Positions 1 to 22,556 of a stretch of DNA of 64,000 nucleotides are shown here, in pieces (position 1 is the stretch's first letter; every line of letters starts with the position of its first letter). This stretch comes from an uncultured Candidatus Melainabacteria bacterium (GTDB lineage: Bacteria; Cyanobacteriota; Vampirovibrionia; Obscuribacterales; Obscuribacteraceae). The stretch lies in NCBI GenBank assembly GCA_937879965.1, contig CALFMP010000054.1, positions 148,909-212,908 of the forward strand. The letters run 5' to 3'. The position numbers and the translations under genes were made by a program. Below the pieces are notes generated by a model. That model was not told the origin of the DNA. It searched no databases and worked only from the letters and a program-made list of their open reading frames with translations.

Positions 1-303
1 TTCTGTGTCGGTACGGCGGGGCTGCGCAGCAACTCAGCAACAGTAGACGTGATTGCAGCAGAAGTGCAGCAAGACCCAAGAGAAGCAGGCCGCGACAACC
101 TGTCCAAGTTGGTGGTCAAAGTGTTGGGCACAAGCAATAAAGTCAATGTCAGGCTGACAAACAACACTCCGGACGTTCTGAAAATACAGCGCGGCAATGA
201 GATGCTTGTCACCACTCCTGGTGGCGCCAATAACTCGTTCGTCGTAGGTGTTCAGAGATTGAAGAAGGGCGCTTACAACGTTGAAGCAGTCATTGAGCAA
301 TAG
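1..303 (+). CDS. 3' end of a CDS that enters from upstream; hypothetical beta-rich protein
   Basis: Frame 1 is open from base 1 to the stop at 301-303. The composition is coding-like. No family recognised. Confidence 0.4.
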   Translation, partial: FCVGTAGLRSNSATVDVIAAEVQQDPREAGRDNLSKLVVKVLGTSNKVNVRLTNNTPDVLKIQRGNEMLVTTPGGANNSFVVGVQRLKKGAYNVEAVIEQ

Positions 304-1777
304 TGGTCTAAAACATCAGCGGGCGAGGATTTTCGCTTGCGCAGTTTTGACCAGCGCTAGCCTATGTACAGCTTTAGCGTTACCTGCATTTTCGCAACAA
401 GCAAAAACTAAAACTCCGTCAGAAATAATCAATGATGCTTATCCTCTCTTGCTGAACAGGAAAGCGAATCCGGCAGAACAGCAGTACTGGAGCGGTAGAT
501 TGAAAAATCTGTCGCCTTTCGCTGTGACTGATTTATACGATGGCTTGACGCGTTTGCCTGAATATCGCAAGCGTTTTGCTGGTTTGACGCAGAAAGACCA
601 AATTGCGCTCATGTACAAGACTTTATTGAGCAAAGATTCGGTGGATCCGGACAGCGAGAAGAAATGGCTCGACTACTACAAGAGAGGCGGGTTGGTAGAC
701 ACGGTTGAGACAATTGTCGGCTCTGCCGATCACACAATGTGTGTCTACAAACGTGTCGGACTCTCCACGCAGCAAGAATGGGACGCCGTTCACATGGCTG
801 AGAACATGGCGGCGACGAATAAGCCCAGAGCAACAGAAATGTACAAGAACATCATCAGGACCTCGAAAGTACCCGAGACGTACTATTTTCTTTCCCGCGT
901 GCAGTCTTACTACGATAGCAAGGCGGCCATCGAAACCCTGCAAGGTGAGGTCACGCGCTTTCCTGATGACGCTCTAGCTGAACTGAAATTGTCGTATTAC
1001 ATGAACAACGCAGGAGCTCTGGGAATAGCGTTTGGTCGTGCCACGCACGCCATTAGAGTGAGTGATGAACGCGCCGGAGCGGACACATTGATCAGCTCCA
1101 TGCGAGAAAGACTGGACAAAGCAAAACACATTGAGTGCTTGAGCCGTGAAATGCTTTTAGCACGCGCCGCCGCACACGACCGCGCAGACCAACACGCTTT
1201 TGCCTTACCCGAATTGGAAAGAGCACTCGCGCTTGGACCTGGTGACGGCACCGTATACACTCAACTCTGCAACGCTTACTTCAATCTGGGACATTATGCA
1301 GAAGCTGTCGAATACGGCAAAAAGGCAGAGAAGGTTTTCGGGGTTAACTTCAGTATTCTCTGGCCACGCAGCCTCTGTTACTATGCGCTAGGCAAATACA
1401 AGGAAGCAATCGCAGACTTCGATAAAGTGATTCCTCTTGGTCCTCTGCCAAAGTTTTATGAGACCCGGGCCAAATCTTTTGAGAAACTCGGGAAGTACAA
1501 AGAGGCAATCTCTGACTACAACACACTGATAAAGACTGACCCCAAGGTAATCAAAAATTATGTGGGCCGCGGGCGCAATTACTTGGCTTTGGGGAAAACA
1601 AAAGAAGCAATCGCAGACGCCAATCATGCAATCAAGATCGGACCGCGATTTCGTGACGCGTTCAAATTCAGAGCTGAAATCTACAGAAAGATAGGCAACA
1701 ACGCTGCTGCTGATGCAGACCAGAAAAAATACAATCAGATGATGAAGTTGTATGTGGAGCCCAAAGATTTTGAATAA
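281..1777 (+). CDS. Secreted DUF4214-like plus TPR repeat protein
   Basis: TTG start, with no in-frame ATG near the N-terminus. Signal-peptide-like N-terminus (ACAVLTSASLCTALALPAFSQQ). Two DUF4214-like segments (YPLLLNRKANPAEQQYWSGRL; MYKTLLSKDSVDPDSEKKWLDYY). C-terminal tandem TPRs (repeated GKYKEAIADF/SDY pattern). Confidence 0.7.
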   Translation: MKQSLSNSGLKHQRARIFACAVLTSASLCTALALPAFSQQAKTKTPSEIINDAYPLLLNRKANPAEQQYWSGRLKNLSPFAVTDLYDGLTRLPEYRKRFAGLTQKDQIALMYKTLLSKDSVDPDSEKKWLDYYKRGGLVDTVETIVGSADHTMCVYKRVGLSTQQEWDAVHMAENMAATNKPRATEMYKNIIRTSKVPETYYFLSRVQSYYDSKAAIETLQGEVTRFPDDALAELKLSYYMNNAGALGIAFGRATHAIRVSDERAGADTLISSMRERLDKAKHIECLSREMLLARAAAHDRADQHAFALPELERALALGPGDGTVYTQLCNAYFNLGHYAEAVEYGKKAEKVFGVNFSILWPRSLCYYALGKYKEAIADFDKVIPLGPLPKFYETRAKSFEKLGKYKEAISDYNTLIKTDPKVIKNYVGRGRNYLALGKTKEAIADANHAIKIGPRFRDAFKFRAEIYRKIGNNAAADADQKKYNQMMKLYVEPKDFE

Positions 1778-6066: not shown

Positions 6067-7107
6067 ATGATCGAAGTATTCAAAGGTAAGACGGCTCTCA
6101 TAACCGGTGGCATGGGCTTCATCGGCTCCAATCTGGCTGCGAAGCTGGCTGAGCTGGGCGCGAAGGTCACCATCCTGGACGCCATGATTCCGGATTACGG
6201 CGGCAACGTATTCAACGTTCAAGAATCCGACAAAATTCGCATCAACTTTTGCGACATAAGAGACCCTTCAGCCGTCGATTGGCTGGTGCGCGGGCAGGAT
6301 TATGTTTTTCACCTGGCCGGTCAGGTCTGCCACCTGATGAGCCTTTCCAATCCATTTCCCGATATTGAAATGAATATCACCGGCACCGCCATCGTTATGG
6401 AGGCGCTGCGCAAACACAATCCGAATGCAATTGTTGTTTACACAGGTACACGTGGTCAGTACGGCTCCGTCGTTTCCATGCCGGTAAATGAAGAAGCACC
6501 GACCAATCCCAAAGGGATCTACGAGATTTCCAATCTCACCGCCGAAAAAATCATCAAGGTTTACAACGATGTTCACGGCATCCGTTCGTGCTCATTGCGC
6601 TTGAGCAACATTTACGGACCGCGTTCGCAAATGATGCACTCGCGCTTCGGTGTCGCCAACTGGTTTATCCGTCTGGCAATGGACGACGACACCATTCAAC
6701 TCTTCGGCGACGGCAGCATTCTGCGCGACTTCTGCTACGTCGATGATTGCGTCGATGCAATTTTGCGCGTTGCCACCACACCGGAATGCTATGGCGAGAT
6801 TTTCAACGTCGGCTCCGACATTCCAGTCAGCTTCAGAGAATTGTGCGACGCCATCGTCAAAGTTGCGAAGTCGGGTCGCTGGCAGTTCGCCGAGTTTTCG
6901 CCGGAAAGAAAAGCGCAAGAGCCTGGCGATTTCTATTCGGATATCTCCAAGATCGAACGCTTCACAGGCTGGCGCCCCAACACCGAGTTGGAAGAGGGCA
7001 TCGCGAAGACAATCGAATACTACGCGAAACACCGCGATCACTATTGGACCAAGCCGGAAAAAACTTTGCCCGCAGACAAAGAAACGGTCACTGCGACAAA
7101 GCGTTAG
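6067..7107 (+). CDS. NAD-dependent epimerase/dehydratase (extended SDR, UDP-sugar decarboxylase/epimerase-like)
   Basis: Rossmann motif TGGMGFIGSNL. Extended-SDR layout. The expected YxxxK reads YEISN (Lys to Asn), see findings. Confidence 0.85.
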   Translation: MIEVFKGKTALITGGMGFIGSNLAAKLAELGAKVTILDAMIPDYGGNVFNVQESDKIRINFCDIRDPSAVDWLVRGQDYVFHLAGQVCHLMSLSNPFPDIEMNITGTAIVMEALRKHNPNAIVVYTGTRGQYGSVVSMPVNEEAPTNPKGIYEISNLTAEKIIKVYNDVHGIRSCSLRLSNIYGPRSQMMHSRFGVANWFIRLAMDDDTIQLFGDGSILRDFCYVDDCVDAILRVATTPECYGEIFNVGSDIPVSFRELCDAIVKVAKSGRWQFAEFSPERKAQEPGDFYSDISKIERFTGWRPNTELEEGIAKTIEYYAKHRDHYWTKPEKTLPADKETVTATKR

Positions 7108-7258
7108 ACTCTGCGGTCAAAGGTTATTCAGGCGTTCGTCACCGTCAAGCAAGAGCTTGTTGGAACGACAATCAGTCCTTAATCACGAGCCTGCTTGCGG
7201 GTTAACCCCAGTGCGTTTTTTCACGACTGCGTGAAGAATGAGCGCTGAGGTACTTAGT

Positions 7259-8194
7259 ATGCAGCGAAAGACTCCGAGACGAACCAAATCCGAACGCTCT
7301 CTCGCATACCTGCTCGCATTCTCATTTGCCGCGTGCACCCCTGCAGTGCTGGCTGACCAACGTGATGTTCTGAACGCACAGAAATACGTCAAAGAAGTGG
7401 GAGAGAATCAGGAGGAGTCTATAACGGCGCACTTCGATCTCGCGTGCGCCTACCTCGAAGACGAAAAGTATCAAAAGGCGGACGATGCTTTCAACAAGGC
7501 GGTTGCCATAGAAAAACGAGTAGGGCTTACCACTCATGGCATAGTGACGCTGTACATGGATTGGGCAGAACGTCTCGTTGAGCACTACGAATTTAAGAAG
7601 AATCCCGAGCTGTTGAAACAAGCAACCCAAGCAATCGCAGGTGCCACACTCGCAACAAAAAGAATCCCATTGCACGACTCCGTCTACTACCATCAGCAGA
7701 TGATTGATTTTTTTCGCAAGGTCGGAATGAAGGCAGAAGAGAAGAAGCAGATTCAGATTTTTGACAATAGTTTGTCAGCCGTTGAGCAAGGACCACTCGA
7801 AAGCCACGAAATAACCCAGATTGGATTTGCTCTGAAACAACTTGCGGCGATGCACGCACGCGCGCTCTCGGTGCATGAAATCCACCACGGAACAAAACCC
7901 ACCGAGCAAGTGACAAGCGACAACACGCCAAGCAAGCCAAAAACAATAAAACAGTCGAAGTTTTCGAAAGCAGAATGTTATATGCTCCGAGCAAATCAAG
8001 TTTTTAGCAGGCTTGCGGAAAATTCGCACATAAGGCTACAGGAGCAACGCGAGCTTATATTCTGGTTTCGATACTACGGCAGAAAGTCTCAAGAAGAATT
8101 TCAAACGAGACAGCTAGCAAAACTTGTCCATTCAAACGATCTGAAAATCATGTTTCCGCCGGTGGAGCGTTGTTTAGGGTGCGGGCGAGGGTAG
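7259..8194 (+). CDS. Secreted protein, paralog 1 of a family ending in CxxCGRG; candidate DUF692 substrate
   Basis: ATG at 7259 with GAGG 9 nt upstream (the longer ORF starts at 7238). Signal/lipobox-like N-terminus (LLAFSFAACTPAVLA). The last ~75 aa are collinear with the two downstream paralogs. Ends ...FPPVERCLGCGRG-stop. Confidence 0.7.
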   Translation: MQRKTPRRTKSERSLAYLLAFSFAACTPAVLADQRDVLNAQKYVKEVGENQEESITAHFDLACAYLEDEKYQKADDAFNKAVAIEKRVGLTTHGIVTLYMDWAERLVEHYEFKKNPELLKQATQAIAGATLATKRIPLHDSVYYHQQMIDFFRKVGMKAEEKKQIQIFDNSLSAVEQGPLESHEITQIGFALKQLAAMHARALSVHEIHHGTKPTEQVTSDNTPSKPKTIKQSKFSKAECYMLRANQVFSRLAENSHIRLQEQRELIFWFRYYGRKSQEEFQTRQLAKLVHSNDLKIMFPPVERCLGCGRG

Positions 8195-8229
8195 AATTGA
8201 AGACAGGCATTTCAAAGGGCGGGGAGAGA

Positions 8230-8829
8230 ATGAACAACAAATCTTCTAAGGTTATCAATTCATTGGTTGCACTGGGAGTGGTAGTCAGTGCGTTGCCTGC
8301 CTACGCCGATGAAACACCACTCGCGCGCGCATTGAAGCACTACGAAGAAATCAGTAAGAAGCAGGGAGCAAGCATACAGGCATCGCAGCTTGCTAAACTG
8401 GAGAAAGAATTGAAAGCGCTTGAAGCAGATGAAAAGCTGGATCGCAACGGCATTTTGTCCACCGCGATGATATTTCAAAGGCTCGCACAAAAGCATGCTC
8501 CCTCGCTTAACTTCCGCGGCTCCCGAATGGTGCCGCAGGTCCAGGTTGTAGCCGATGATGCACCTGCTAAGGACGGAAATATTAAGCAAAAGAACTACAA
8601 TGCGGCTGAAGGCTATAGGCTGCGTGCAATGGCTCTGTACAACAGACTTCCGGAAACAGATCCGACACGAATCAACGAACAGCGAAATTTAGCGTCCTGG
8701 TACTACCACTATGGTCAAAAGCAGCAGGAAGAACTTCAAACTCAGCAGTTGAGCAAGTTGCTGCATACAACCGACCGAGATAAACTGTTTCCGCCGCCAC
8801 CGCCTTGCCCTGCGTGTGGAATGGGTTAG
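8230..8829 (+). CDS. Secreted protein, paralog 2 of the family, ending in CPACGMG; candidate DUF692 substrate
   Basis: ATG at 8230 preceded by GGGGAGAG. Sec signal with AYA-DE cleavage context. Conserved C-terminal module ...LFPPPPPCPACGMG-stop. Confidence 0.75.
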   Translation: MNNKSSKVINSLVALGVVVSALPAYADETPLARALKHYEEISKKQGASIQASQLAKLEKELKALEADEKLDRNGILSTAMIFQRLAQKHAPSLNFRGSRMVPQVQVVADDAPAKDGNIKQKNYNAAEGYRLRAMALYNRLPETDPTRINEQRNLASWYYHYGQKQQEELQTQQLSKLLHTTDRDKLFPPPPPCPACGMG

Positions 8830-8871
8830 GTAGTGCAAACAGCAACTGTGAAAACTCGGAATAAGGAAGTG

Positions 8872-9882
8872 ATGCGAAAGAAGACCATCCTGGCAATCGC
8901 ATTCGCGAGTAGCGTACTTTGCCCTACACTCCCGACTCTAGCAGAGAAGGCTCTTGATTCGTCGGATCCCGAGATACAGGAAATACCGAATGAAAAGAAT
9001 ACAGATCCAAGATCACGGGCAGAATCACTGCTTAGATACGCGAGCAAGCACCTGCCAGAAAGTGTGCAATACGATGTCGACCTTCAACTATTGCGCATGC
9101 ATTACGTTGAAACGCGAAAGGCACGGTTTAAGAAATACCGTCGGTGGGATTTACTAGACCTCGGCAACCGGGAAATCCTTTCAGAAATCGATGCAAGAAA
9201 AAAATTTGCCTATAAAGATCGGGACCTTCAGAAGTTCCAAAACGAAGAAAAGCGAACCCTGGCAAACCAGGCAACTCAGCAGGCATTGAATCAAATAGCA
9301 AATTGCAATGACAGGTACGTTCGACTTTACCTCTACTTAGTCGCCCTGCAATTATTTCATCAAACAGACAATATAGATGGAATGCAGCAATGCAATGGTT
9401 TTCTTGAAAAAGAGTTCCAGAGATGCGAGAAGAATGCACATGTTGACGAGATTGAGATTGACGAATCAATCTCGGTCCTAAATCAGATGGCAAACAATTT
9501 GATTCATACATATATCTCGACCATTGACCTAAAGACTTATCCGCTTTTGACTTCTACTCTAAAGAGGTCACCTCCGCCGACAATAGAACCGTTTACTGAA
9601 GAGGATTTCGTAGAAAGCGAGAAGCTAAGACTTAGAGCACTTGCTATCGCAGACCGACTACCACCCGAACATCACCTGAGAAGACGCGCGCACCGAGATT
9701 TAGTTCTTTGGTATCAACAGTTAGGCAAAAACGAAAAAGCTGAAAATGAAAAATCGATTTTATTCGATTTGGTCGGAATTAGGGACGATAGTATTCTATA
9801 TCCCCAACCAGGAATGTGTGGGCGTCATGTTTGGTGGCAAAAGGTTGGAACAGTAGCGGAGTTTGGTTGTGGAATGGGTTAG
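8872..9882 (+). CDS. Secreted protein, paralog 3 of the family, ending in GCGMG; candidate DUF692 substrate
   Basis: ATG at 8872 preceded by AAGGAAG (a GTG alternative lies at 8833). Signal peptide MRKKTILAIAFASSVLCPTLPTLA. Same C-terminal module, but 16 aa lie between the two Cys (C-GRHVWWQKVGTVAEFG-C-GMG-stop). Confidence 0.7.
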   Translation: MRKKTILAIAFASSVLCPTLPTLAEKALDSSDPEIQEIPNEKNTDPRSRAESLLRYASKHLPESVQYDVDLQLLRMHYVETRKARFKKYRRWDLLDLGNREILSEIDARKKFAYKDRDLQKFQNEEKRTLANQATQQALNQIANCNDRYVRLYLYLVALQLFHQTDNIDGMQQCNGFLEKEFQRCEKNAHVDEIEIDESISVLNQMANNLIHTYISTIDLKTYPLLTSTLKRSPPPTIEPFTEEDFVESEKLRLRALAIADRLPPEHHLRRRAHRDLVLWYQQLGKNEKAENEKSILFDLVGIRDDSILYPQPGMCGRHVWWQKVGTVAEFGCGMG

Positions 9883-9980
9883 TTTTAGCGAATGAGAATT
9901 GTGATGGAAGGCGGCAGTTATGAAATCCAAGCAAGAAAGAGCTTTAGTAGAGTGCGAGCGAAGAGAGATGGATAAGTTTC

Positions 9981-10859
9981 ATGCCTAGTAAACCGAAACT
10001 TGGACTATCGCTGATGCCGACGGAAGATTTCGAGCAGGCGACTGTTCCGCTGTTTCAAAACAATCAAGTTCAGGCAATTGAGTGGAGTTTTGACTTCTCC
10101 TGGAATGGTGCGGTCGTCAGCGAATGGTGCGACGGTATTCTTCACGAGTTTAGTAATCGAGGCGCGTTGACCGGACACGGCGTCAATCTTTCTCCCCTAT
10201 CAGCGCGGTTTTCAAAGAGGCAAGAAGAGTGGCTTGCGAATGCGAAGGAAGAGTTTAAAAATCGAAAGTACGTGCACGCGACTGAGCATTTTGGTTTTTC
10301 TGAAGCAGGTCCGATTGCGCAAGGTGCACCATTGGGAGTGCCAATGAATGCTGAGTCTTTGCGCAAAGGCAAAGATATGATGAAGCGTTATGCGGACGCG
10401 ACGCAATGCCCAGTAGGACTGGAGAATCTCGCTTTTGCATTCGGTCTTGAAGATGTGAAACGTCAGGGCGATTTCATCGATCAATTGATTTCCTCGGTCG
10501 ATGGTTTCCTCCTGTTGGATGTGCACAATATTTATTGTCAGCTTGCGAATTTTGGTGTTTCTGAGTTGGAATTGCTGAATTCATATCCGCTCTCAAAAGT
10601 TCGCGAGATACATTTATCCGGTGGAACATGGAGTGGGTCTATCTCTGGAAAGAGAGCTGCTGTACGGCGTGACACGCATGACGATGCTATTCCTCAAGAA
10701 GTTTTCAACCTAGCGACATTGGCATTGAAGCTTTGCCCAAACGTCGAGTTTGTGATCATGGAAAGACTCGGATACACCATGATGGATCTAGATTCTCAGC
10801 AAGAATTCCGCGAAGACTTCGAGACAATGGAAGAGATTCTGGAGTTTTGCTATGCCTGA
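9981..10859 (+). CDS. DUF692 family (MbnB/TglH/BufB-like) multinuclear non-heme iron oxidase, TIM-barrel
   Basis: 292 aa. Ordered motifs match MbnB by eye: GHGVNLS, ATEHFGFS, GLENLAF, LLLDVHNIY, IHLSGG, RRDTHDD, VIMER. These align with MbnB AFHIMLS, SDHILYF, YLENYPS, LFDASNAI, FHVAGYG, KADTHDR, ITYERD. Confidence 0.85.
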   Translation: MPSKPKLGLSLMPTEDFEQATVPLFQNNQVQAIEWSFDFSWNGAVVSEWCDGILHEFSNRGALTGHGVNLSPLSARFSKRQEEWLANAKEEFKNRKYVHATEHFGFSEAGPIAQGAPLGVPMNAESLRKGKDMMKRYADATQCPVGLENLAFAFGLEDVKRQGDFIDQLISSVDGFLLLDVHNIYCQLANFGVSELELLNSYPLSKVREIHLSGGTWSGSISGKRAAVRRDTHDDAIPQEVFNLATLALKLCPNVEFVIMERLGYTMMDLDSQQEFREDFETMEEILEFCYA

Positions 10860-11073
10860 GGAAGAAGAGGAAACACTTCAAGACTTCCAAGACGCTCTCA
10901 TAGAGCTGCTTTCGAGTGGACAGCCGGAGCTGGTGATTTTTGAAACTTTGAAAACAGATCCGAGATTCGAAAACTATCGCGACTACATTGCTGAATTCGA
11001 TCCTGACATGGTGGCAGTCGCTTGCGAGCTAATGGGCAAGTGGGCAAAATGGAAAGAACCTGAAGAAATATAG
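10852..11073 (+). CDS. Small acidic protein translationally coupled to the DUF692 gene; candidate minimal partner/recognition subunit
   Basis: The ATG overlaps the DUF692 stop (ATGCCTGA, 8-nt overlap). 73 aa, helical-looking, begins EEEEETLQDFQDALIELL, reminiscent of the N-terminus of DUF2063-type partners. No confident family call. Confidence 0.55.
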   Translation: MPEEEEETLQDFQDALIELLSSGQPELVIFETLKTDPRFENYRDYIAEFDPDMVAVACELMGKWAKWKEPEEI

Positions 11074-11094
11074 ACCGTTGAACAACACTTCTGA

Positions 11095-11128
11095 GCCGGC
11101 GAGCCGCCGGCGCTCCCAGGCTTCGCAC
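11095..11128. repeat. REP-like hairpin (GCCGGCGAGCCGCCGGC subtype)
   Basis: GCCGGCG-AGC-CGCCGGC hairpin followed by GCTCCCAGGC. The same unit recurs at 26257, 57125 and 57205. Lies between convergent genes. Confidence 0.7.
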
Positions 11129-11130
11129 AC

Positions 11131-11457
11131 TTACGATTTGTCCTGAAGTCCGTCGCAAACTTGGCGCATCTCTTCCTCTGAAAGGCAGGCGTGAGACGAG
11201 AGCCTGTTAGAGAGCCAACCAGTCAGTTCTTTGCGTTCATCATCTCGGACAAACAGTTCCGTCATCCGTCCGCGAAACCAACCCACTAGTTCGAACACTT
11301 CTTTGAACGTCACTTTCGTTTCATCATGACGCGTTTCGCAGTGACACGACATCAGCCACGAGGTGAACTCCTTCACCTCAGACGCACTCAAATTGCTTTC
11401 CTTAACTCGGTCTTGCAACCAGCGCTCGAACTCTTGTGCCTCATCTTTGTCGGGCAT
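11131..11457 (-). CDS. Hypothetical protein with three internal E(F/L)xxWL repeats
   Basis: 108 aa. Starts 3 nt after the upstream SUFU-like gene. Repeated EFERWLQDRV / EFTSWLMS / ELTGWLSNRL. Confidence 0.55.
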   Translation of the reverse strand: MPDKDEAQEFERWLQDRVKESNLSASEVKEFTSWLMSCHCETRHDETKVTFKEVFELVGWFRGRMTELFVRDDERKELTGWLSNRLSSHACLSEEEMRQVCDGLQDKS

Positions 11458-11460
11458 GGT

Positions 11461-12549
11461 CTAGCTCTCGAAGGACTCACTACCGTACGCGACGTTTTCC
11501 CTAAAGTTATCCGCGAAGGATTTGGTTTTCAGCAAGGCAAGTCCAATTCCCTCTTGCTCCATCACTGTGCCACGGTATGGATCTGTGACTTGGTCGTGTC
11601 CCATTTGGCGTAAGACTTGCTGTATGCACCACGTTCCATATTCTTCTATTGACTCTGCAAACTGCCTTTCGTCAGGAGTGATGCCGATAGCGATGAAGAG
11701 GCCAAAGCCGCCGGACGGCAGATAGTACCAGCAATCTGGAGCATCATCTGGATACCAAATAAAGATGTTGCTCAACTTGGAATTGGAGCCGGGAATGATG
11801 GGGCCGTTCAAATCAATTCGCACGCCAGGTGAAAGTGTCCCTGCATGATTGAGAATGTAGAACGCCAAAGTGCGCAGTATTTGCGGCGCCCAGGGCATAT
11901 CTTCCTTCGCCTTGATCATGATTTCGCAACCGAAGCCGGTCACTTCTGCAGGAGCATCCTGCAACCATGGACTGCTCAATCCGGCAGTAACATAAGTCCA
12001 ATAGGGGCGCGTCGGATCTGGCGCGTAAACGAGAATATTGAGGTGTTGTTCGTCGAGGTTCGGATTGCCCGGGTCGCCGGTCTCGCCTCTCTCTTTTTCT
12101 TCCTCAGGCAGAATTACATCTTCTAATTTGAGCACCGGAGGCGGTGCATATGGTCCGGGAGTAACATGGTGAGGTTCACCGAACAATTCGCGATAAAGCT
12201 CATCACGAGTATTCCAGGACTCAATCAGCAAGTTTCGCTGCCTAACCGCTGCTTCACGCGCTTCTTCAGGCGAAAGTTGCATCCCTTGCAGCATCTTGAA
12301 GACGCGGGAGTCTTCTAGCTCGATGTACTCGTCAGACTCGTATGTTATTTCCCCGCCAGCCGCTACGAGCTTTTGCGCATCGAGCTGCTCGCGATCGCAT
12401 CCAGGCTCAGATTTAGCTTTTGCAGAAGACTTTGGTGGATCAACTTTCTGCTCAGCAGAACTTGCCGCTTCCATTTTTTCTGTTTTTTCTACAGCTTTCT
12501 TCGGTGCTGATTTCTTCGGCTTCTCATTGCCGGATTTGCCCTTGGGCAT
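11461..12549 (-). CDS. Suppressor-of-fused (SUFU)-like domain protein with Lys-rich disordered N-terminus
   Basis: The C-terminal ~230 aa show the bacterial SUFU-like pattern (HLNILVYAPDPTRPYWTYVTAGLS ... PWAPQILRTLAFYILNHAGTLSPGVRIDLNGPI). The ATG shares one base with the lepA stop (TAATG). Confidence 0.6.
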   Translation of the reverse strand: MPKGKSGNEKPKKSAPKKAVEKTEKMEAASSAEQKVDPPKSSAKAKSEPGCDREQLDAQKLVAAGGEITYESDEYIELEDSRVFKMLQGMQLSPEEAREAAVRQRNLLIESWNTRDELYRELFGEPHHVTPGPYAPPPVLKLEDVILPEEEKERGETGDPGNPNLDEQHLNILVYAPDPTRPYWTYVTAGLSSPWLQDAPAEVTGFGCEIMIKAKEDMPWAPQILRTLAFYILNHAGTLSPGVRIDLNGPIIPGSNSKLSNIFIWYPDDAPDCWYYLPSGGFGLFIAIGITPDERQFAESIEEYGTWCIQQVLRQMGHDQVTDPYRGTVMEQEGIGLALLKTKSFADNFRENVAYGSESFES

Positions 12550-14354: not shown

Positions 14355-14757
14355 TGGCTTCCAAGTACAACTGCGAGGGCGTAAACGCGTGAGCTCTCAT
14401 TAGCGCGGGCTCAGAAAGACCAGAGCGCGCCCATGTGGTCTACACGAACCGTATGATATCAGGGAAAACCCCGCCAGGTGCCCACCTGAAGGTTTTGACA
14501 CTTAATCAGCAATAAAAGAACAAGGAAGGCTTTCCTCGGAATCGGTCGCCTGCTGTCTTTAGCGGACCTGAGATGTTCCGTAACGCAGGCTGGCGCCCGT
14601 CTCAAAGCTCCTTAACGGCGTGTTAAAATTCGATTTTAGGGTGTTCTTGGGCTTGGGCGTCCGCACGGACGATTCGAGCACTATTTCCGCTCTGGCAACC
14701 ATTGGCGACTTTTGCGACAACTTCCGTTCCAGACCTTTCACCCGACAACCTGTTTTT

Positions 14758-16764
14758 ATGCCAAAAAAAGAAACCCGGAGACACATGACGCATCCCTTCC
14801 TCAAAGAGCTCGCGAAAAGACCGCTACTTGCAGATGGAGGCATAGGCACACTGCTCTATGCACGGGGCGCATCCCCGGAAGCAAGCTTTGAGCACCTCAA
14901 CCTGACCAAGCAGGACGAGATTCAAAAGGTCCACATCGACTACATCAATGCGGGTGCTGATGTAATCGAGACGAATTCTTTCTCAGCAAACAAGTACCGC
15001 CTGGCGACCTTCGGTCTTGAGGCGGACACGCACAAAATCAATTTGTGGGCAGCCAAGGTGGCGCGAAACGCGCGCGAAGTTGGCGGGCAGCCGGTGTTTG
15101 TAGCTGGTTCTGTCGGGCCGACCGGGAAACTGATGGCGCCCATCGGCGATGTCACAGCGCAAGATCTCAAAGACGCTTTTACAGAGCAAATGGAAGCGCT
15201 ATTGGCTGGCGGCGTCGATCTTTTCATTATCGAAACCATGTCATCGCTGGAAGAAACGGCAATTGCAGTTCGTGCAGCCAGAGCAGTTTCAAAACTTCCG
15301 GTCGTAGCACAAATGAGTTTCTCCCCGGACGGACACACACTTCTTGGTGTCACACCCGAAGACGTTGTAAAACTCTACGTCGAACTCGGCGACGATGCGC
15401 CTGATGTTATTGGTATCAATTGCGGTGCTGGTCCTGGTCCCGTTTTCGATTCGCTGCTGCGCATGTCGCATGCATTGAAAGAACGCGGTGTAGACCCGTC
15501 CAAACTCAATTATTCGTGTTTACCAAACGCCGGTCAGCCAAGCTTGAGCGGTGGACGATATCAATTTATGTCCGGTCCGGACTACTGCGCATCTTATGTA
15601 GAACCTTACGTGCGTGCGGGTGCGCGATTGATTGGCGGCTGCTGCGGTACGACCCCGCACCACATCAAAGCGATGCGCGCAGAACTTGACGCATACATCG
15701 AATCGCAAAAATCGGCATCAGCTGCAACAGCACAGCAACTGCCGGCGATGAAGCCGGAGGCGCTCATTACTCCGAAAGATAAAGCGCGCCCGGTCGAAAT
15801 TAAAAAAGAAACTCCCAAGGTTGGTCCCGAACTTCCCGCATTGGCCGCGCGACTTGCCAATTCCAAGGCAAATCCGAAGAACGGTGATTTCTATGTAAGT
15901 GTGGAACTTGATCCCCCAAAAGGCGCCATCGCCAGAAAGATTTTGCAAGCTGCAGAAACACTCAGAGACGCTGGCGCAGATGCCATCAATGTTGGTGACA
16001 GCCCGATGGCGCGTGTGCGCATGTCATCGTTGGCGACCTGCCAGTTGATTTCGACAAAGGTCGGAATCGAAACCATCATCCACTTCACCACACGCGACCG
16101 CAACCTGATGGGCATTCAAGCCGATTTGCTTGGCTGCCAGGCTCTGGGCATCCACAACGTCATCGCACTCACCGGCGATCCGCCTGCATTGGGCAATTAC
16201 GTCCATGCCACTGCTGTATACGATGTGGACTCTGTTGGTCTTATCAAAATCATAAGCCAGCTCAATCAAGGCTTGGACATCGCAGGCAACTCGATTGGAA
16301 CACCCACTTCGCTCTCAATCGCTTGCGCGCTGAATCCTACGCACGAAAATCGCGCGCAAGAACTCGACCGCTTCGGCAAGAAAATCGAGGCAGGTGCTCA
16401 CTTTGCGATGACACAACCGCTCTATCAATTGAGCGATCTCACAAACTTCCTCGATGAATTCGGCGAGTGCAAGATTCCAATTCTCGTCGGTATTATGCCG
16501 CTTCATAGCTTCAAACACGCCGAATATCTGCACAACGAAGTGCCCGGTATCACTATTCCCGACAAGGTCCGCAAAGCCATGGAAAAAGCTGGCGATCAAG
16601 GAGCGTCCGTTGGATTGGAACTGGCGGAAGAATTGCTCGAAGAACTGCGCCCGCTCTGCCAGGGAACATACGTCGTCCCCTCTTTCGGCCGCTACGACGA
16701 CATATGCCAATTCGTAAAACGCATCAAAGAAAAATCACAAACAAAAGCCGCCGCTAAGACGTAG
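14758..16764 (+). CDS. Bifunctional homocysteine S-methyltransferase / 5,10-methylenetetrahydrofolate reductase (YitJ-like fusion)
   Basis: ATG at 14758 (the longer ORF from 14620 is unlikely). N-terminal Hcy-binding domain (LLADGGIGT ... GGCCGTTPHHI), a linker, then a MetF-type MTHFR domain (VSVELDPPKG ... HFTTRDRN ... ALTGDPP). Confidence 0.9.
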   Translation: MPKKETRRHMTHPFLKELAKRPLLADGGIGTLLYARGASPEASFEHLNLTKQDEIQKVHIDYINAGADVIETNSFSANKYRLATFGLEADTHKINLWAAKVARNAREVGGQPVFVAGSVGPTGKLMAPIGDVTAQDLKDAFTEQMEALLAGGVDLFIIETMSSLEETAIAVRAARAVSKLPVVAQMSFSPDGHTLLGVTPEDVVKLYVELGDDAPDVIGINCGAGPGPVFDSLLRMSHALKERGVDPSKLNYSCLPNAGQPSLSGGRYQFMSGPDYCASYVEPYVRAGARLIGGCCGTTPHHIKAMRAELDAYIESQKSASAATAQQLPAMKPEALITPKDKARPVEIKKETPKVGPELPALAARLANSKANPKNGDFYVSVELDPPKGAIARKILQAAETLRDAGADAINVGDSPMARVRMSSLATCQLISTKVGIETIIHFTTRDRNLMGIQADLLGCQALGIHNVIALTGDPPALGNYVHATAVYDVDSVGLIKIISQLNQGLDIAGNSIGTPTSLSIACALNPTHENRAQELDRFGKKIEAGAHFAMTQPLYQLSDLTNFLDEFGECKIPILVGIMPLHSFKHAEYLHNEVPGITIPDKVRKAMEKAGDQGASVGLELAEELLEELRPLCQGTYVVPSFGRYDDICQFVKRIKEKSQTKAAAKT

Positions 16765-17378: not shown

Positions 17379-18359
17379 CTAACGAACCTTGTCTAATTTG
17401 TACACATCATGCTCGGTTGAAGTATCCGTGCTAATCGCATCTTTGTCGGTTGGATCATTGATTCGGCGCTGAATCTCATCTGCTTTTTCGAAACGATTTG
17501 TCTTCTTCAAGAGGCTGACGTACAGTTCTAACGCATCGATGGTTCTTCTGTGTTGTCTGCCATAAGCTTTGGTGCGGATATTGATCGCACGCTTGAGCAA
17601 TGGCTCTGCAACCGAGTAACGCTCCTGTGCCATGTACACACGCGCCAGATTCTTCAATTCAGTAGAGACGGTGTGATGCTCTTCGCCAAATGTGTTTTCG
17701 CGAATCTGCAGAGCTTCCATGAGCAGCGGCTCCATCTCCTTGTACATTTTCTTACGGCAGTACAAGTCCGCGAGTTTCGTCAACGCATCAGCTACAGAGA
17801 CATTCTGATTGCCAACCATCTGGCGCAACAAAGTAATTTCGGACTGCGCTTCCAAAATCATCGACTCGGTCACTTTTTTCGGCTTGTCAGACTTGCCGCT
17901 CAAATCTGTATGAGACAGCCCCAACTCTTCGTGATCGCTTGTCGCCGATTGGGGTTTGGCAGTCTCGTTGGTAGACTTCATCTTCGCAAAGTACGCATCG
18001 ACTGTCGGGATACCGCCCATCGAAAGCGTTAGCGGAGTGTCTTGAAGAGTGCGGCGCGCGTGCGGCGGAATGGTTCCACCACGACGGGCTGCGGCTGCTT
18101 CCTTCTCTCTTTTCTGTAGACTGATTTCGTATAATTTTTGACCGACGGCGGCAGCACCAGCGCGGTGAGGAGCAGCAGCGACCTCAAGAATACTGAGCGC
18201 GCGTTCGTATATCGATTCTGCCTTGAGCAAATCGCCCTGCTCAAGATATAGCGCCGCTAAACGTTGGAGGGTTATCGCCACCTCTGGGTTGTTCGAGCCC
18301 AACGCTTGTTCTTGAATCGTCAAAAATCTTTCGACATCTTCGATACTATTTACTTTCAT
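17379..18359 (-). CDS. TPR repeat protein (kinesin-light-chain-like TPRs)
   Basis: TPR_10/12-like repeats at both ends (ITLQRLAALYLEQGDLLKAESIYERAL; LKNLARVYMAQERYSVAEPLLKRAINI). Start uncertain: ATG at 18359 preferred, in-frame alternatives at 18419 (ATG) and 18440 (GTG). Confidence 0.7.
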   Translation of the reverse strand: MKVNSIEDVERFLTIQEQALGSNNPEVAITLQRLAALYLEQGDLLKAESIYERALSILEVAAAPHRAGAAAVGQKLYEISLQKREKEAAAARRGGTIPPHARRTLQDTPLTLSMGGIPTVDAYFAKMKSTNETAKPQSATSDHEELGLSHTDLSGKSDKPKKVTESMILEAQSEITLLRQMVGNQNVSVADALTKLADLYCRKKMYKEMEPLLMEALQIRENTFGEEHHTVSTELKNLARVYMAQERYSVAEPLLKRAINIRTKAYGRQHRRTIDALELYVSLLKKTNRFEKADEIQRRINDPTDKDAISTDTSTEHDVYKLDKVR

Positions 18360-18450
18360 GTTGGCACCGGCTTGGAATCCACAATCAAATTTCTTTTGCA
18401 CGGCGCCTGAATTAAACATTGGCGGCGCCCTGAGCACCACGCGCGATGCT

Positions 18451-18842: not shown

Positions 18843-21800
18843 CTAAACGCGGGCAGATTCCTGGCGTTTTACATTGAAGTATTTCGCTTCCGGATGTACG
18901 ACAACAACAGCAGATGTTGATTGCTCCGGGACAAGCATAAATTCTTCACTCAAAGACACGCCAATGCGCTCAGGCTCCAGGAGCTGGAATAGTTGAACTT
19001 GATCTTCTAGATTGGGGCACGCTGGATATCCAAAACTATATCTGGTACCACGATATCCTTGCTGGAAGAATTTGTTGCGATCTTCTGCATCGAATTTCAC
19101 GAGTCCAAGTTCTTCACGCACGCGCTTGTGCATCACTTCGGCAAGACCTTCGGCAGATTCCACCGAGAGTCCATGGAAATACAGATAGTCAGTGTATTTA
19201 TCGCTCTTGAACAGCTGCTCGGAATGCACCGATGCACCTGCACCCATGGTGACAATTTGGGCAGGTAAAACATCAATCAATCCTTCAGCGCGCGTGTGGA
19301 AGAAGTCAGAAATGCAAAGATGGCGAGCGTGATCCTGACGTGGGAAATTGAAACGAGTCCACTCTTCGAGATCAGCTATATCTGAGGCTTTCAGCTTCAG
19401 TACTTGGCCTGTCTTAGCATCCAATTCCTTCACGGCTTTGAGGAATGATTCGTTTACTTTGTAGACAATCAAATCATTGCCGTCTGCCAGAACCGGAAAA
19501 TATCCGTAGACTGCTTTCGGAACCAGAAGTTTTTTCTCGATGCATTCTTTCTCTAAGGCGCGAAGAACGGGACGTACCTTCGTATCGAGTAGCTGTTCGT
19601 ACTCGGCTTCGGAAGTATCACCCTGTCGCACTCGCCACTGTCCGCGGATCAGCGCGTTCTCGTTGATGTACTTGAACACCTCAGAAAGTGGAACATCCTC
19701 AACAACTTTGCTGCCCCAAAACGGTGGTGCAAAAGTATCTTCATTGCGTTTCACATCAGAGCTTTCATGCGGCTTTGCACCGTTCTTCGGCGGCTCGGTT
19801 GAAGAAGCGGTACCAGAAGTTGCAGCAGCTTGATCTTCCGGACTGAAATCCAAAGTCGCCGGTTGAGTTTTCTTTTCTGAAACTTTGACAGCGTTGGAAG
19901 TTGCGCTCGATGCCGTCTTTGTTTGCTCGGCAGCAACAACATCATCAGGCTCTCTACCATTGCTATCGTCGTCTGCATCGGGGTTATGCTGTCCGGGCTG
20001 AGCACCCATCATCTTGGTGAGCAAAGCCTGATCTTTGTTTGCCAGCCCTTCCATGATCTTCAAATCGTCAAAAGCGTCTTGACCATAGAAAAGCGTTCCT
20101 TTGTAAACGCGACGACAATCATCTTCGACGTATCGACGAGTAAGCGCAGCTCCGCCGAGAATCACAGGAATTCCGATGCCACGTTGATTGAGAATCTCCA
20201 GATTCTCTTTCATGATGACCGTCGACTTTACCAGCAATCCGCTCATGCCTACGCAATCGGCTTTGTTCTCAATTGCTGATGCGATGATGTTTTCGATCGG
20301 CTGTTTAATACCAAGATTGATTACTTTGTAGCCGTTGTTGCTCAAGATGATGTCGACAAGATTCTTGCCGATATCGTGGACGTCGCCCTTGACTGTCGCC
20401 AACACCATAGTGCCGCGCTGAGAGCCTTCGACCTTCTCCATAAACTGTTCGAGATAAGCAACGGAAGCTTTCATTGTCTCCGCCGATTGCAGCACGAACG
20501 GCAATTGCATTTTGCCTGCACCAAACAAGTCGCCGACAACTTTCATGCCTTCGAGCAAAATAGAGTTGATAATTTCGAGCGGTGCGTATTTCTTCAGCGC
20601 GATATCGAGATCCTTCTCCAATGCGACACGGTTACCGTCGATAATGCGCTCTTTGAGAACATCTTCAATCTCCTGCGGTCCTCTATCTTTGACAGACGCA
20701 GATTTCTTGGTATCGGTATTCTGATAGTACTCAAGCAATTTGAAGAGCGGATCGTAGTCTGGCGTGCGCTCGTCAAAGACCAGCTTTCTGTGCAACTCGC
20801 GCTCGGCTTCGTCAATTTTGTAGAGTGGCAGAATCTTCTGCGCATTGACGATTGCCATATCAAGACCGGCTTCCACAGCGTAATGCAGGAATACCGAATT
20901 CAAAATCTGCCGGATGTGAGGATCAAAACCAAATGAGATGTTGCTGACACCAAGCACGGTCTTAACCCCAGGCAAGGTTTCCTTGATCATGCGAATGCCG
21001 TCTAGAGTCGCCAGCCCAAGCTTGCGATCATCCTCATTACCGGTAGATAGCGTAAATGTGAGGGCATCGAAGATCAAATCTTCCGGGCGCAAACCTTCGG
21101 CAAGCGCAAGATCATAAATCCTTTTTGCAACTTCGAGCTTCTGTTCCGCTTCCTTTGCCATTCCATTTTCGTCAATGGTGAGCGCGATAGTTGCCGCGCC
21201 GAAGCGCTTGATCAGGCGAACCTTCTTGAGCATCTTATCGACGCCGTCTTCGAGGTTGATCGAATTGATAATCGGGCGCCCGGCGATAAGCTTCAACGCT
21301 TCTTCCAAAACTGGAAATTCGGTTGAATCAATTACCTGCGGAATCTGCAATTCAGTGTTCAAACGCTTGATGAAAGTCGACATGTCTTTGACTTCATCGC
21401 GACCAACATAGGCGGTGCAAACGTCTAGCACATGCGCGCCTTCCTTTTCCTGGTCGCGCGCCATCGCCACCATGCCGTCCCAATCTTCTTTGTTGAGCAG
21501 CTGTTTGAATTTGCGGCTGCCATTAGTATTTGTTCGCTCTCCAATGATGAGCGGTGCAGGATCAACATGCAGCGCCACCGATGTGTAAATGCTTGCAGCA
21601 GCAGGAGTGTATTCTGGATGTCGCACTTTCGGCGCAACATGACCGACCACTTCGACCACGCGTTTCAAGTGTGCAGGCGTCGTGCCGCAGCATCCGCCGA
21701 TCACGTTGACGCCCAGTTCGTTGACGAAATATTTGAGCGAATTGGCCAAATCATCCGGCGTAAGCTTGTAAACAGTCTGCCCGTTAACATTTTCAGGCAG

Positions 21801-22556
21801 CCCGGCATTCGGCAAACAGGAAACATACTTGGTCGTGTTCATCGTCAAGTACTGGACCGGATCAATCATTTCGCTCGGGCCAGTCGCACAGTTGATGCCG
21901 ATTACATCAATTGGAAACGCACAGAGAGTGGCGAGCGCAGCAGAGATATCGGTGCCGACCAGCATCGTTCCGAGTGGCGGTGCTTCGATGGTCACTTGCG
22001 TGATAATCGGAACTTTGCGCCCGATCTTCTGGAAATAGTCGACCATCGCAACAACGGCTGCTTTCGCCTGCAGCAAATCCTGTCCGGTTTCGAACTGAAG
22101 ACAATCAACTCCGCCATCCACCAGCCCTGAGACCTGGACATAGTAAGCGGCGCACATCTCATCAAAACTTATATGACCGAGCGAAGGCAGTTTTGTCGTT
22201 GGTCCGATGGAACCGGAAACATAACGCTGTTGCCCGTTTTTCGAATACGCGTCGGCAACTTCTCGAGCCAACTCTGCGGCTCTCTTGTTTAACTCGTAGG
22301 CCCTGTCCTCCAGGCCAAACTCAGCCAGGACCACCGGCGAACCGCCGAACGTATCGGTTTCTACAACATCGCAGCCGACTTTGAAAAATGACTCGTGAAT
22401 TTCTTTGATGACTTCCGGTCGACTCACCACCAGAATTTCCGGGCAATTTTCCGCGCCCTGGTAATCGTCCAGGGTCAGGTCATAAGTGTGAATGGACGTG
22501 CCCATAGCCCCATCGAAGATGAGGACCTTTTCTTTTAGCGCGTCGAGAAATTGCAT
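18843..22556 (-). CDS. metH: Cobalamin-dependent methionine synthase
   Basis: 1237 aa. Hcy-binding domain (GGCCGTTPAHL), pterin-binding domain, B12-binding domain (DVHDIGKN), and a C-terminal AdoMet-activation domain. A low-complexity linker precedes the activation domain. Confidence 0.97.
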   Translation of the reverse strand: MQFLDALKEKVLIFDGAMGTSIHTYDLTLDDYQGAENCPEILVVSRPEVIKEIHESFFKVGCDVVETDTFGGSPVVLAEFGLEDRAYELNKRAAELAREVADAYSKNGQQRYVSGSIGPTTKLPSLGHISFDEMCAAYYVQVSGLVDGGVDCLQFETGQDLLQAKAAVVAMVDYFQKIGRKVPIITQVTIEAPPLGTMLVGTDISAALATLCAFPIDVIGINCATGPSEMIDPVQYLTMNTTKYVSCLPNAGLPENVNGQTVYKLTPDDLANSLKYFVNELGVNVIGGCCGTTPAHLKRVVEVVGHVAPKVRHPEYTPAAASIYTSVALHVDPAPLIIGERTNTNGSRKFKQLLNKEDWDGMVAMARDQEKEGAHVLDVCTAYVGRDEVKDMSTFIKRLNTELQIPQVIDSTEFPVLEEALKLIAGRPIINSINLEDGVDKMLKKVRLIKRFGAATIALTIDENGMAKEAEQKLEVAKRIYDLALAEGLRPEDLIFDALTFTLSTGNEDDRKLGLATLDGIRMIKETLPGVKTVLGVSNISFGFDPHIRQILNSVFLHYAVEAGLDMAIVNAQKILPLYKIDEAERELHRKLVFDERTPDYDPLFKLLEYYQNTDTKKSASVKDRGPQEIEDVLKERIIDGNRVALEKDLDIALKKYAPLEIINSILLEGMKVVGDLFGAGKMQLPFVLQSAETMKASVAYLEQFMEKVEGSQRGTMVLATVKGDVHDIGKNLVDIILSNNGYKVINLGIKQPIENIIASAIENKADCVGMSGLLVKSTVIMKENLEILNQRGIGIPVILGGAALTRRYVEDDCRRVYKGTLFYGQDAFDDLKIMEGLANKDQALLTKMMGAQPGQHNPDADDDSNGREPDDVVAAEQTKTASSATSNAVKVSEKKTQPATLDFSPEDQAAATSGTASSTEPPKNGAKPHESSDVKRNEDTFAPPFWGSKVVEDVPLSEVFKYINENALIRGQWRVRQGDTSEAEYEQLLDTKVRPVLRALEKECIEKKLLVPKAVYGYFPVLADGNDLIVYKVNESFLKAVKELDAKTGQVLKLKASDIADLEEWTRFNFPRQDHARHLCISDFFHTRAEGLIDVLPAQIVTMGAGASVHSEQLFKSDKYTDYLYFHGLSVESAEGLAEVMHKRVREELGLVKFDAEDRNKFFQQGYRGTRYSFGYPACPNLEDQVQLFQLLEPERIGVSLSEEFMLVPEQSTSAVVVVHPEAKYFNVKRQESARV

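Follow-up and report, generated by a model that had tools for sequence, protein, structure and literature searches.

Three neighboring proteins with similar two-cysteine C-termini are encoded directly beside an MNIO (DUF692) enzyme in an uncultured Candidatus Melainabacteria bacterium of the family Obscuribacteraceae, and the question is what these proteins are to the enzyme. The locus lies in a stretch of 64,000 nucleotides (contig CALFMP010000054.1 of assembly GCA_937879965.1), which is called the window here, and the three genes are called A1, A2, and A3. By analogy with a characterized homologue, we believe that A1–A3 are tandem paralogous precursors and very probably substrates of the enzyme, a member of the ChrH subfamily, in a mel-type system of Melainabacteria/Obscuribacterales. 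Systems of this kind have been published, and A1, A2, the enzyme, and a small open reading frame (ORF) behind it join them as new members. The core of A3, in which the two cysteines are widely spaced, belongs to a long-loop subclass, the only part of the system that may hold some novelty.

The cluster consists of five closely spaced genes on the + strand, in the order A1, A2, A3, MNIO gene, and small ORF. All three precursor genes are directly upstream of the MNIO gene in the same orientation, with gaps of 3–98 nt: 35 nt between A1 and A2, 3–42 nt between A2 and A3, and 98 nt between A3 and the MNIO gene. The MNIO gene and the small ORF overlap by 8 nt. No other ORF of the 64-kb window besides A1–A3 has a C...CGxG ending.

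A1 (7238..8194, +) is a protein of 318 aa and 36.5 kDa by ORF translation (311 aa from ATG 7259), and it ends with CLGCGRG. A2 (8230..8829, +) is a protein of 199 aa from its ATG and 22.2 kDa, and it has the canonical ending CPACGMG. A3 (8833..9882, +) has 349 aa from GTG 8833, or 336 aa (39.1 kDa) from ATG 8872, which gives a mass of 39–40.6 kDa by start codon, and it ends with CGRHVWWQKVGTVAEFGCGMG; the public data call it from ATG 8872, and P0002 is 100% identical to it over 336 aa. On inspection, all three precursors have a basic N-terminus, a hydrophobic core (Kyte–Doolittle value of approximately 2–2.5), and an A-x-A-like site, which are absent in the enzyme and the small ORF. The signal-like segment of A1, seen as an N-terminal hydrophobic peak, covers residues 1–39, with the site between TPAVLA and DQ; that of A2 is MNNKSSKVINSLVALGVVVSALPAYA, followed by DE, and that of A3 is MRKKTILAIAFASSVLCPTLPTLA, followed by EK. 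The body of A1 is TPR-like and all-alpha, with Pfam TPR matches under the threshold. The body of A3, the long-loop member, is also TPR-like, and its Pfam TPR_12 match (E 2.5e-5) is below threshold.

The similarity of the three C-termini had first been seen by eye in the initial annotation, and it is statistically significant. The three tails compared there are the exact C-termini of the + strand ORFs 7238–8194, 8230–8829, and 8833/8872–9882. BLASTP gave E=3e-21 for A1 and A2, E=6e-10 for A1 and A3, and E=1e-10 for A2 and A3, and a formal MAFFT alignment, in which 21 of the last 96 columns are invariant, recovered the by-eye consensus. The consensus common to both classes of tail is F-x3-E-x3-LRA-x4-DRLP-x5-R-x3-AHR-x-L-x2-WY-x3-G-x11-L-x2-L-x4-D-x3-L[FY]P-x4-C...CGxG. 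A shared module of approximately 75 aa had been proposed; the module itself is real, but the similarity of A1 and A2 reaches 151 aa. An insertion in the third copy is also real, but its net size is 14 residues instead of the 16 first given, because 16 residues lie between the two cysteines in A3 and 2 in the other copies.

In A1, the conserved C-terminal module (F242–G318; 7961..8191, +) has helices at 239–256, 264–279, and 283–297, an LFP-x4 linker, and the C-x2-CGRG core. In A2, it covers Y123–G199 (8596..8826, +), as defined by pairwise BLASTP, MAFFT, and the family alignment. In A3, it covers F246–G336 in 336-aa numbering (9607..9879, +), with helices at 243–260, 268–283, and 287–301, an ILYPQ linker, and the core. 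The long-loop core of A3 (9817..9879, +) is C316-G-R-H-V-W-W-x10-C333-G-M-G336, with 16 residues between the cysteines.

The enzyme gene (9981..10859, +) encodes a protein of 292 aa, which we assign to the MNIO (DUF692) enzymes of the ChrH subfamily as a MelH-like member by PF05114 and the NCBIfam model MNIO_ChrH. PF05114 matched with E 4.4e-27 and 95 bits, compared with a cut-off of 25. The best NCBIfam model was MNIO_ChrH (E 3e-99, 332 bits, model positions 1–283 of 363), and other models scored far lower, with 80 bits for BufB, 65 bits for HvfB, 13 bits for MbnB, and at most 80 bits for ApyH. The nearest solved relative is the DUF692 protein 8hci (E 1e-9), with which the HNIY, HL(S/A)GG, and HD motifs are aligned. 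Because the enzyme has no N-terminal hydrophobic segment, it is probably cytoplasmic.

The small ORF (10852..11073, +) encodes an acidic, probably MelHc-like protein of 73 aa and 8.6 kDa and extends over the MNIO stop codon, with an overlap of 8 nt. When the enzyme and this protein were joined, they gave one continuous alignment with the ChrH model, from position 1 to 361 of 363, with 336.3 bits. The 73-aa protein thus lines up with the C-terminal helical domain of ChrH that is missing from the enzyme, and this sequence comparison suggests that it is probably that domain, separately encoded. The assignment as MelHc is supported by the collinear alignment with the hidden Markov model and by a structural statement in the main text of PMC13056109, according to which the C-terminal helical bundle of ChrH is split off as the small protein MelHc in Cyanobacteria and Melainabacteria. 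Pfam and NCBIfam gave no match to an RRE-type (PqqD-like), DUF2063, or MbnC partner in any ORF of the cluster.

The published system closest to this locus is the mel system of 'Candidatus Melainabacteria bacterium SJ512', described by Chen, Zhu, Zhang, Berthold & van der Donk (PNAS 2026, PMC13056109; preprint PMC12636315). According to the main text of that paper, ChrH-subfamily precursors end with CPxCGxG, and the melainabacterial ones are TPR-containing proteins of 30–40 kDa with a signal peptidase I (SPI) secretion signal and a CPACGMG ending. The same text reports that MelA1 was modified, with a loss of 4 Da at the motif (macrocycle and hydantoin), only when both MelH and MelHc were present. 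The window locus resembles this system in several respects: it belongs to the same lineage, as its relatives come from metagenome-assembled genomes (MAGs) of Melainabacteria/Obscuribacterales, a separate gene for a small helical protein follows the MNIO gene, and the precursors are TPR-like with a secretion signal and a C-terminal cysteine motif, which in A2 is the identical CPACGMG. In contrast to the mel system, the window comes from another genome and has three paralogs with three cores (CLGCGRG, CPACGMG, and C-x16-CGMG), and A2 has only 22 kDa compared with 30–40 kDa for the Mel precursors. The published mass of the MelA1 LysC fragment, 1388.62 Da, matched none of the CPACGMG proteins that we collected, so the characterized MelA1 is not in the collected set. 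The initial annotation had taken the three proteins for full-size carriers of a short C-terminal core beside a DUF692 enzyme, that is, an inverted precursor of a peptide made on the ribosome and modified after translation (RiPP), and this idea agrees well with what the main text of PMC13056109 says of MelA1, MelH, and MelHc.

Other systems are more distant. ChrA/ChrH of Chryseobacterium, the source of chryseobasin (Ayikpoe et al., ACS Cent Sci 2023, PMC10214503), and DybA/DybH of Dyadobacter belong to the same MNIO subfamily with a CxxCGxG core, and the chemistry expected of the window enzyme by analogy would be the same as theirs, macrocycle and hydantoin. However, ChrA and DybA are peptide substrates of 56–71 aa, and DybA is lipidated via signal peptidase II; the C-terminal helical bundle is fused to the MNIO domain in ChrH and DybH; the ChrH products are additionally S-methylated; and the window MNIO is only approximately 42–43% identical to the Bacteroidota homologue. 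Bufferins and oxazolins (BufA/BufBC and HvfA/HvfBC) and methanobactin (MbnA/MbnBC) are similar in that an MNIO acts on the cysteines of precursors with signal peptides, and they share the Cys-Gly context (EGKCG in oxazolins). They differ from the window system in the weak NCBIfam scores of its MNIO, in the lack of DUF2063 and MbnC, in the motif, and in the product chemistry. The bufferin, oxazolin, methanobactin, pearlin, and aminopyruvatide readings were thus ruled out by the model scores and the missing partner proteins.

On the model of these homologues, we propose the following course. The precursor would be made in the cytoplasm, with its Sec-type signal peptide in front of an all-helical, TPR-like body, behind which comes a flexible two-cysteine tail ending with CGxG. 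The cytoplasmic MNIO (9981–10859), in complex with the small helical protein (10852–11073), would draw in the tail to its iron site, where a four-electron oxidation (−4 Da) would join the thiol of the upstream cysteine to the rearranged downstream cysteine in a thioaminal macrocycle, and a hydantoin ring would be closed over the backbone of the following Gly-Met or Gly-Arg. The modified protein would finally be exported and its signal peptide removed. From the literature on the homologues, we take over the chemistry, the requirement for the small partner, and the secretion via SPI; the gene order, the family assignments, the motif conservation, and the fold models are from the present analysis. 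The CPxCGxG motif is fitted by A2, and we infer that A1, whose CLGCGRG has the CxxCGxG spacing without the proline, would be processed like A2, and that the C-x16-CGMG tail of A3 would also be a real substrate and yield a far larger ring.

Several points weigh against this proposal. The signal peptides were assigned by inspection only. The proline of the motif is missing in A1, and A3 stands outside CPxCGxG altogether; ring expansion has been tested in the literature by one residue only (PMC12636315), compared with 14 in A3. The enzyme, alone or joined to the small ORF, reached 332–336 bits against an NCBIfam equivalog cut-off of 600 bits for ChrH, and it is therefore a relative within the ChrH subfamily and not an equivalog; such a subfamily-level score is as expected for the cyanobacterial branch of ChrH enzymes. 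Appending the 73-aa protein adds only approximately 4 bits to the ChrH model score, and BLASTP of this protein against the C-terminal domain of a fused ChrH homologue from Saprospiraceae (Bacteroidota) gave no significant similarity.

A genome scan with the window MNIO was used to find related loci. Seven loci in MAGs of Melainabacteria/Obscuribacterales had enzymes of 75–90% identity, and one peptide-type locus of Saprospiraceae had approximately 42–43% identity. Loci L001–L007 have 1–6 tandem precursor paralogs immediately upstream of the MNIO gene, and L001–L003 are syntenic with the window. The small ORF follows the MNIO gene directly in 7/7 related loci (66–80% identity). It is also present in L013 and L014, which were found via long-loop homologues of 31–32% identity and in which precursor and MNIO genes are likewise adjacent in the same orientation. 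The order within the arrays is conserved: a protein with C-x-G-CGRG, a protein with CPACGMG, optional extras, long-loop proteins, and the enzyme. The positional orthologues of A1 in L001–L003 end with C[YH]GCGRG. Compared with the 316-aa orthologue of A2 in L002 (L002:5580–6530), residues 1–46 and 25–199 of A2 align with residues 1–46 and 136–316, which indicates that A2 is a shortened paralog from which approximately 110 internal residues, or about two helical repeats, are missing. The shortening spares the signal peptide and the C-terminal module. NCBIfam models of ChrA-related RiPPs match the last 12–33 residues of A2, below threshold.

L001 has no long-loop paralog and instead has two proteins with C-x3-C cores, CPGMCGLG and CNGRCGMG (L001:8021–8938 and L001:8957–9970). 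They are natural one-residue expansions of the ring, comparable with the engineered CPAACGMG in PMC12636315.

A large family stands behind A3. A search with A3 gave 67 full-length homologues with 30–100% identity and approximately 96% coverage, and all 67 end with C-x(8–28)-CG[MR]G, with a spacing of exactly 16 in 49. The terminal CG[MR]G is therefore kept in relatives. In the whole set of collected family sequences, 186 of 199 end with C-x(n)-CGxG, and the remaining 13 are either truncated fragments or long TPR proteins of a generic kind. A word-indexed profile search with the three tails returned one fragment only, and an exhaustive HMMER search with the three-tail profile against 1.84 billion representatives returned 793 matches at E≤1e-3 and 245 at E≤1e-10. 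Among the best 150 of the 793 matches, 137 end with C...CGxG; 108 are long-loop, 29 are short-loop (x1–x5), and the last 13 are truncated or are long TPR proteins of a generic kind. In these best 150 of 793 matches, the C-x16-CGMG core is thus the commonest natural form and not an oddity.

The long-loop tail has the form C-G-[HQ]-x-V-W-W-x10-CGMG. In 152 long-loop sequences, conservation is 97–100% at the upstream Cys-Gly, the WW pair, and the terminal CGMG (at least 97% for WW). The displaced first cysteine of the third copy had been taken to mean that the last cysteine is the essential one. This is not supported by the family, in which the upstream cysteine is invariant in 152/152 long-loop sequences and every collected sequence ending with CGxG has a second cysteine upstream. 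The third copy defines a conserved and numerically dominant core variant outside the published CPxCGxG definition. The main text of PMC13056109 describes only CPxCGxG and makes no mention of a wide-spaced variant.

For this subclass, there is another explanation, namely that A3 and the other long-loop proteins are not MNIO substrates, or that their CGMG is altered without ring closure, and that the cysteine pair forms a disulfide or a metal site after export. It would agree with the failure of A3 to fit the published definition, with the experimental limit of ring expansion to one residue in PMC12636315, and with export to an oxidizing compartment of a protein that has other conserved cysteines (C174 is near-invariant). 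However, long-loop proteins are the only precursors, and so the sole candidate substrates, beside an intact MNIO gene and small ORF at five related loci (L004, L006, L007, L013, and L014), and the conservation of CGMG, Cys-Gly, and WW is also against it. The enzymes of L001, which has short-type precursors only, and L002, which has both types, are 92% identical, so there is no sign of a specialized enzyme for each precursor class. Two natural hybrids have lost the upstream cysteine of the long loop and regained CxGCGMG, so that two cysteines are always kept. We therefore consider it rather unlikely that the long-loop class is not a substrate. We tentatively propose, with close to an even chance, that the split MelH/MelHc enzymes of Obscuribacterales act in nature mainly on the long-loop tail and turn it into a thioaminal and hydantoin ring of approximately 18–19 residues or a different product.

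The two hybrids are P0111 and P0128, in which the long-loop upstream cysteine is replaced (N-G-R-L-I-W-W...) and a C-x-G-CGMG pair stands at the very end. They suggest that the family has switched between long and short loops in the course of evolution. C174 of A3 is part of a C-x10-CE pattern with C185 (336-aa numbering), and the two could form a structural disulfide of the exported protein that is unrelated to the C-terminal core.

The N-terminal bodies had been described as not obviously alignable, and the common module as a unit placed on different carrier domains. The first statement is true by eye, but the bodies are homologous at the profile level; the second does not hold. In hhalign, the long-loop family (62 sequences) and the short-loop family (22 sequences) aligned over the whole length with 99.9% probability, E 1.5e-36, and 300 collinear columns. 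Without the signal peptide and the C-terminal module, the alignment still had 98% probability, E 2e-13, and 155 columns, a bodies-only score to which the general similarity between TPR profiles may contribute. From the full-length and bodies-only alignments, it follows that A1–A3 are tandem paralogs of the whole gene, and their C-terminal end is the part that is most constrained and evolves most slowly. The possibility that the module was shuffled onto unrelated carriers was ruled out by the alignment of the bodies alone.

The AlphaFold2 models agree with this result. A3 and A1 were predicted with mean confidence (pLDDT) values of 84.3 and 89.9, respectively, and both are all-alpha solenoids in which the last three helices are the module and an extended tail of lower confidence follows (pLDDT of the terminal block, 58 in A3 and 75 in A1). 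This is the shape that had been expected, a helical module with a free tail. The module helices are TPR_12-like, as seen from the sub-threshold TPR_12 match in A3 and from the three-tail profile, which also matches multi-repeat TPR proteins. A Foldseek comparison of the A3 model with the PDB gave nothing under E 0.075, and the weak matches were generic TPR or 14-3-3-like solenoids. One homologous fold ends with a TPR_12-like repeat, and this repeat together with a linker makes up the module of approximately 90 aa, which is not a cassette on unrelated carriers.

A further explanation follows the model of the initial annotation: the helices of the module would be a follower-type recognition element bound by the MNIO complex, the last residues would be the core, and in this clade the 7-aa motif would not be enough for recognition. 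Conservation in the long-loop family is concentrated in the module, with 13 of 14 invariant columns within the last 76 aa and 20 of 36 near-invariant columns within the last 76–91 residues. A polar patch (D261, R270, R271, H274, R275, D276, W280, and Y281) is common to both classes. The bodies of positional orthologues fall to 26% identity, as for A1, at 90% identity of the adjacent enzyme, and the main text of PMC13056109 describes MelH as inactive without MelHc. On the other side, the preprint (PMC12636315) reports that the 7-aa CPACGMG tag is sufficient for DybH of Bacteroidota even on green fluorescent protein, and that DybH accepts CPPCGMG and CPAACGMG, which is larger by one residue. The conserved L-x2-WY-x3-G-x4-A is largely an ordinary structural signature of TPR_12, which covers the same region; the profile also matches generic multi-repeat TPR proteins with 7–15 matched stretches; and Pfam and NCBIfam found no RRE-type domain encoded in the cluster. 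On balance, a dedicated recognition element seems doubtful to us. A docking role of the module in this clade is possible in view of the conservation pattern and the requirement for MelHc, and if the long loop is a substrate, the polar three-helix module might be the docking surface that makes the distant cysteine pair addressable.

The shared tail could also be a sorting or anchoring signal for lipidation or cell-surface attachment, or a plain CxxC metal site, with the MNIO link being coincidental. C-terminal cysteine motifs can serve as lipidation or anchoring signals, and A1–A3 carry export signals on inspection. Nevertheless, a ChrH-type MNIO gene is adjacent in every locus examined, the distant ones included, and, according to the main text of PMC13056109, the identical motif has been shown to serve as a substrate of MNIO enzymes in ChrA, DybA, and MelA1. 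We regard this explanation as highly improbable. Lipidation at the N-terminus was considered separately: a lipobox-like cysteine is present in the signal region of A1 (FAAC, 7238–7354) and A3 (SVLC, 8872–8943). A lipoprotein of the DybA type (diacylglycerol-bearing RiPP, DAG-RiPP) was rejected because these cysteines are conserved neither in the orthologues nor in the family consensus (KALLAIAFAGGxLxSQLPA), and lipidation is thus unlikely.

The idea that RiPP enzymes modify whole proteins is a young one, and few cases have been demonstrated, the mel system among them. With the window comes a natural array of three members, in which a single enzyme stands beside three different cores. If the long-loop ring is closed, the published CPxCGxG rule would be widened far past the expansion by one residue, and the enzyme family could be used for large C-terminal macrocycles of proteins; if it is not closed, most 'precursors' of the clade must do something else. 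The secreted bodies diverge very fast (26–61% identity) beside an enzyme conserved at 90%, which hints at an ecological interaction.

The cluster is flanked by an NAD-dependent epimerase gene (6067–7107) on one side and a convergent SUFU-like/LepA block on the other. A scan for promoters and terminators in 6900–11600 gave counts under the shuffled expectation. Two genes converge on the cluster from the − strand: an ORF of 108 aa (11131–11457), with an internally repeated W-L...S-x-x-E motif, and a gene for a SUFU-domain protein of 362 aa (11461–12549; PF05076, E 5e-19). The SUFU-like gene is also present in L001–L003, and the 108-aa ORF is also present in L002 and in the short contigs L010–L012; neither has an evident link with the MNIO system. 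Two more TPR-rich proteins are encoded in the window at 281–1777 (+), with a signal-like N-terminus, and at 17379–18440 (−), neither with the terminal cysteine motif. The genome thus seems rich in TPR proteins, which are probably the source of the precursor fold. Further away, inspection of the translations suggests that a 714-aa ORF (14620–16764, +) resembles a homocysteine S-methyltransferase fused to a domain like methylenetetrahydrofolate reductase (MTHFR), and that a 1237-aa protein encoded near it (18843–22556, −) is a MetH-like methionine synthase. This neighborhood of methionine and one-carbon genes is kept in L001–L003.

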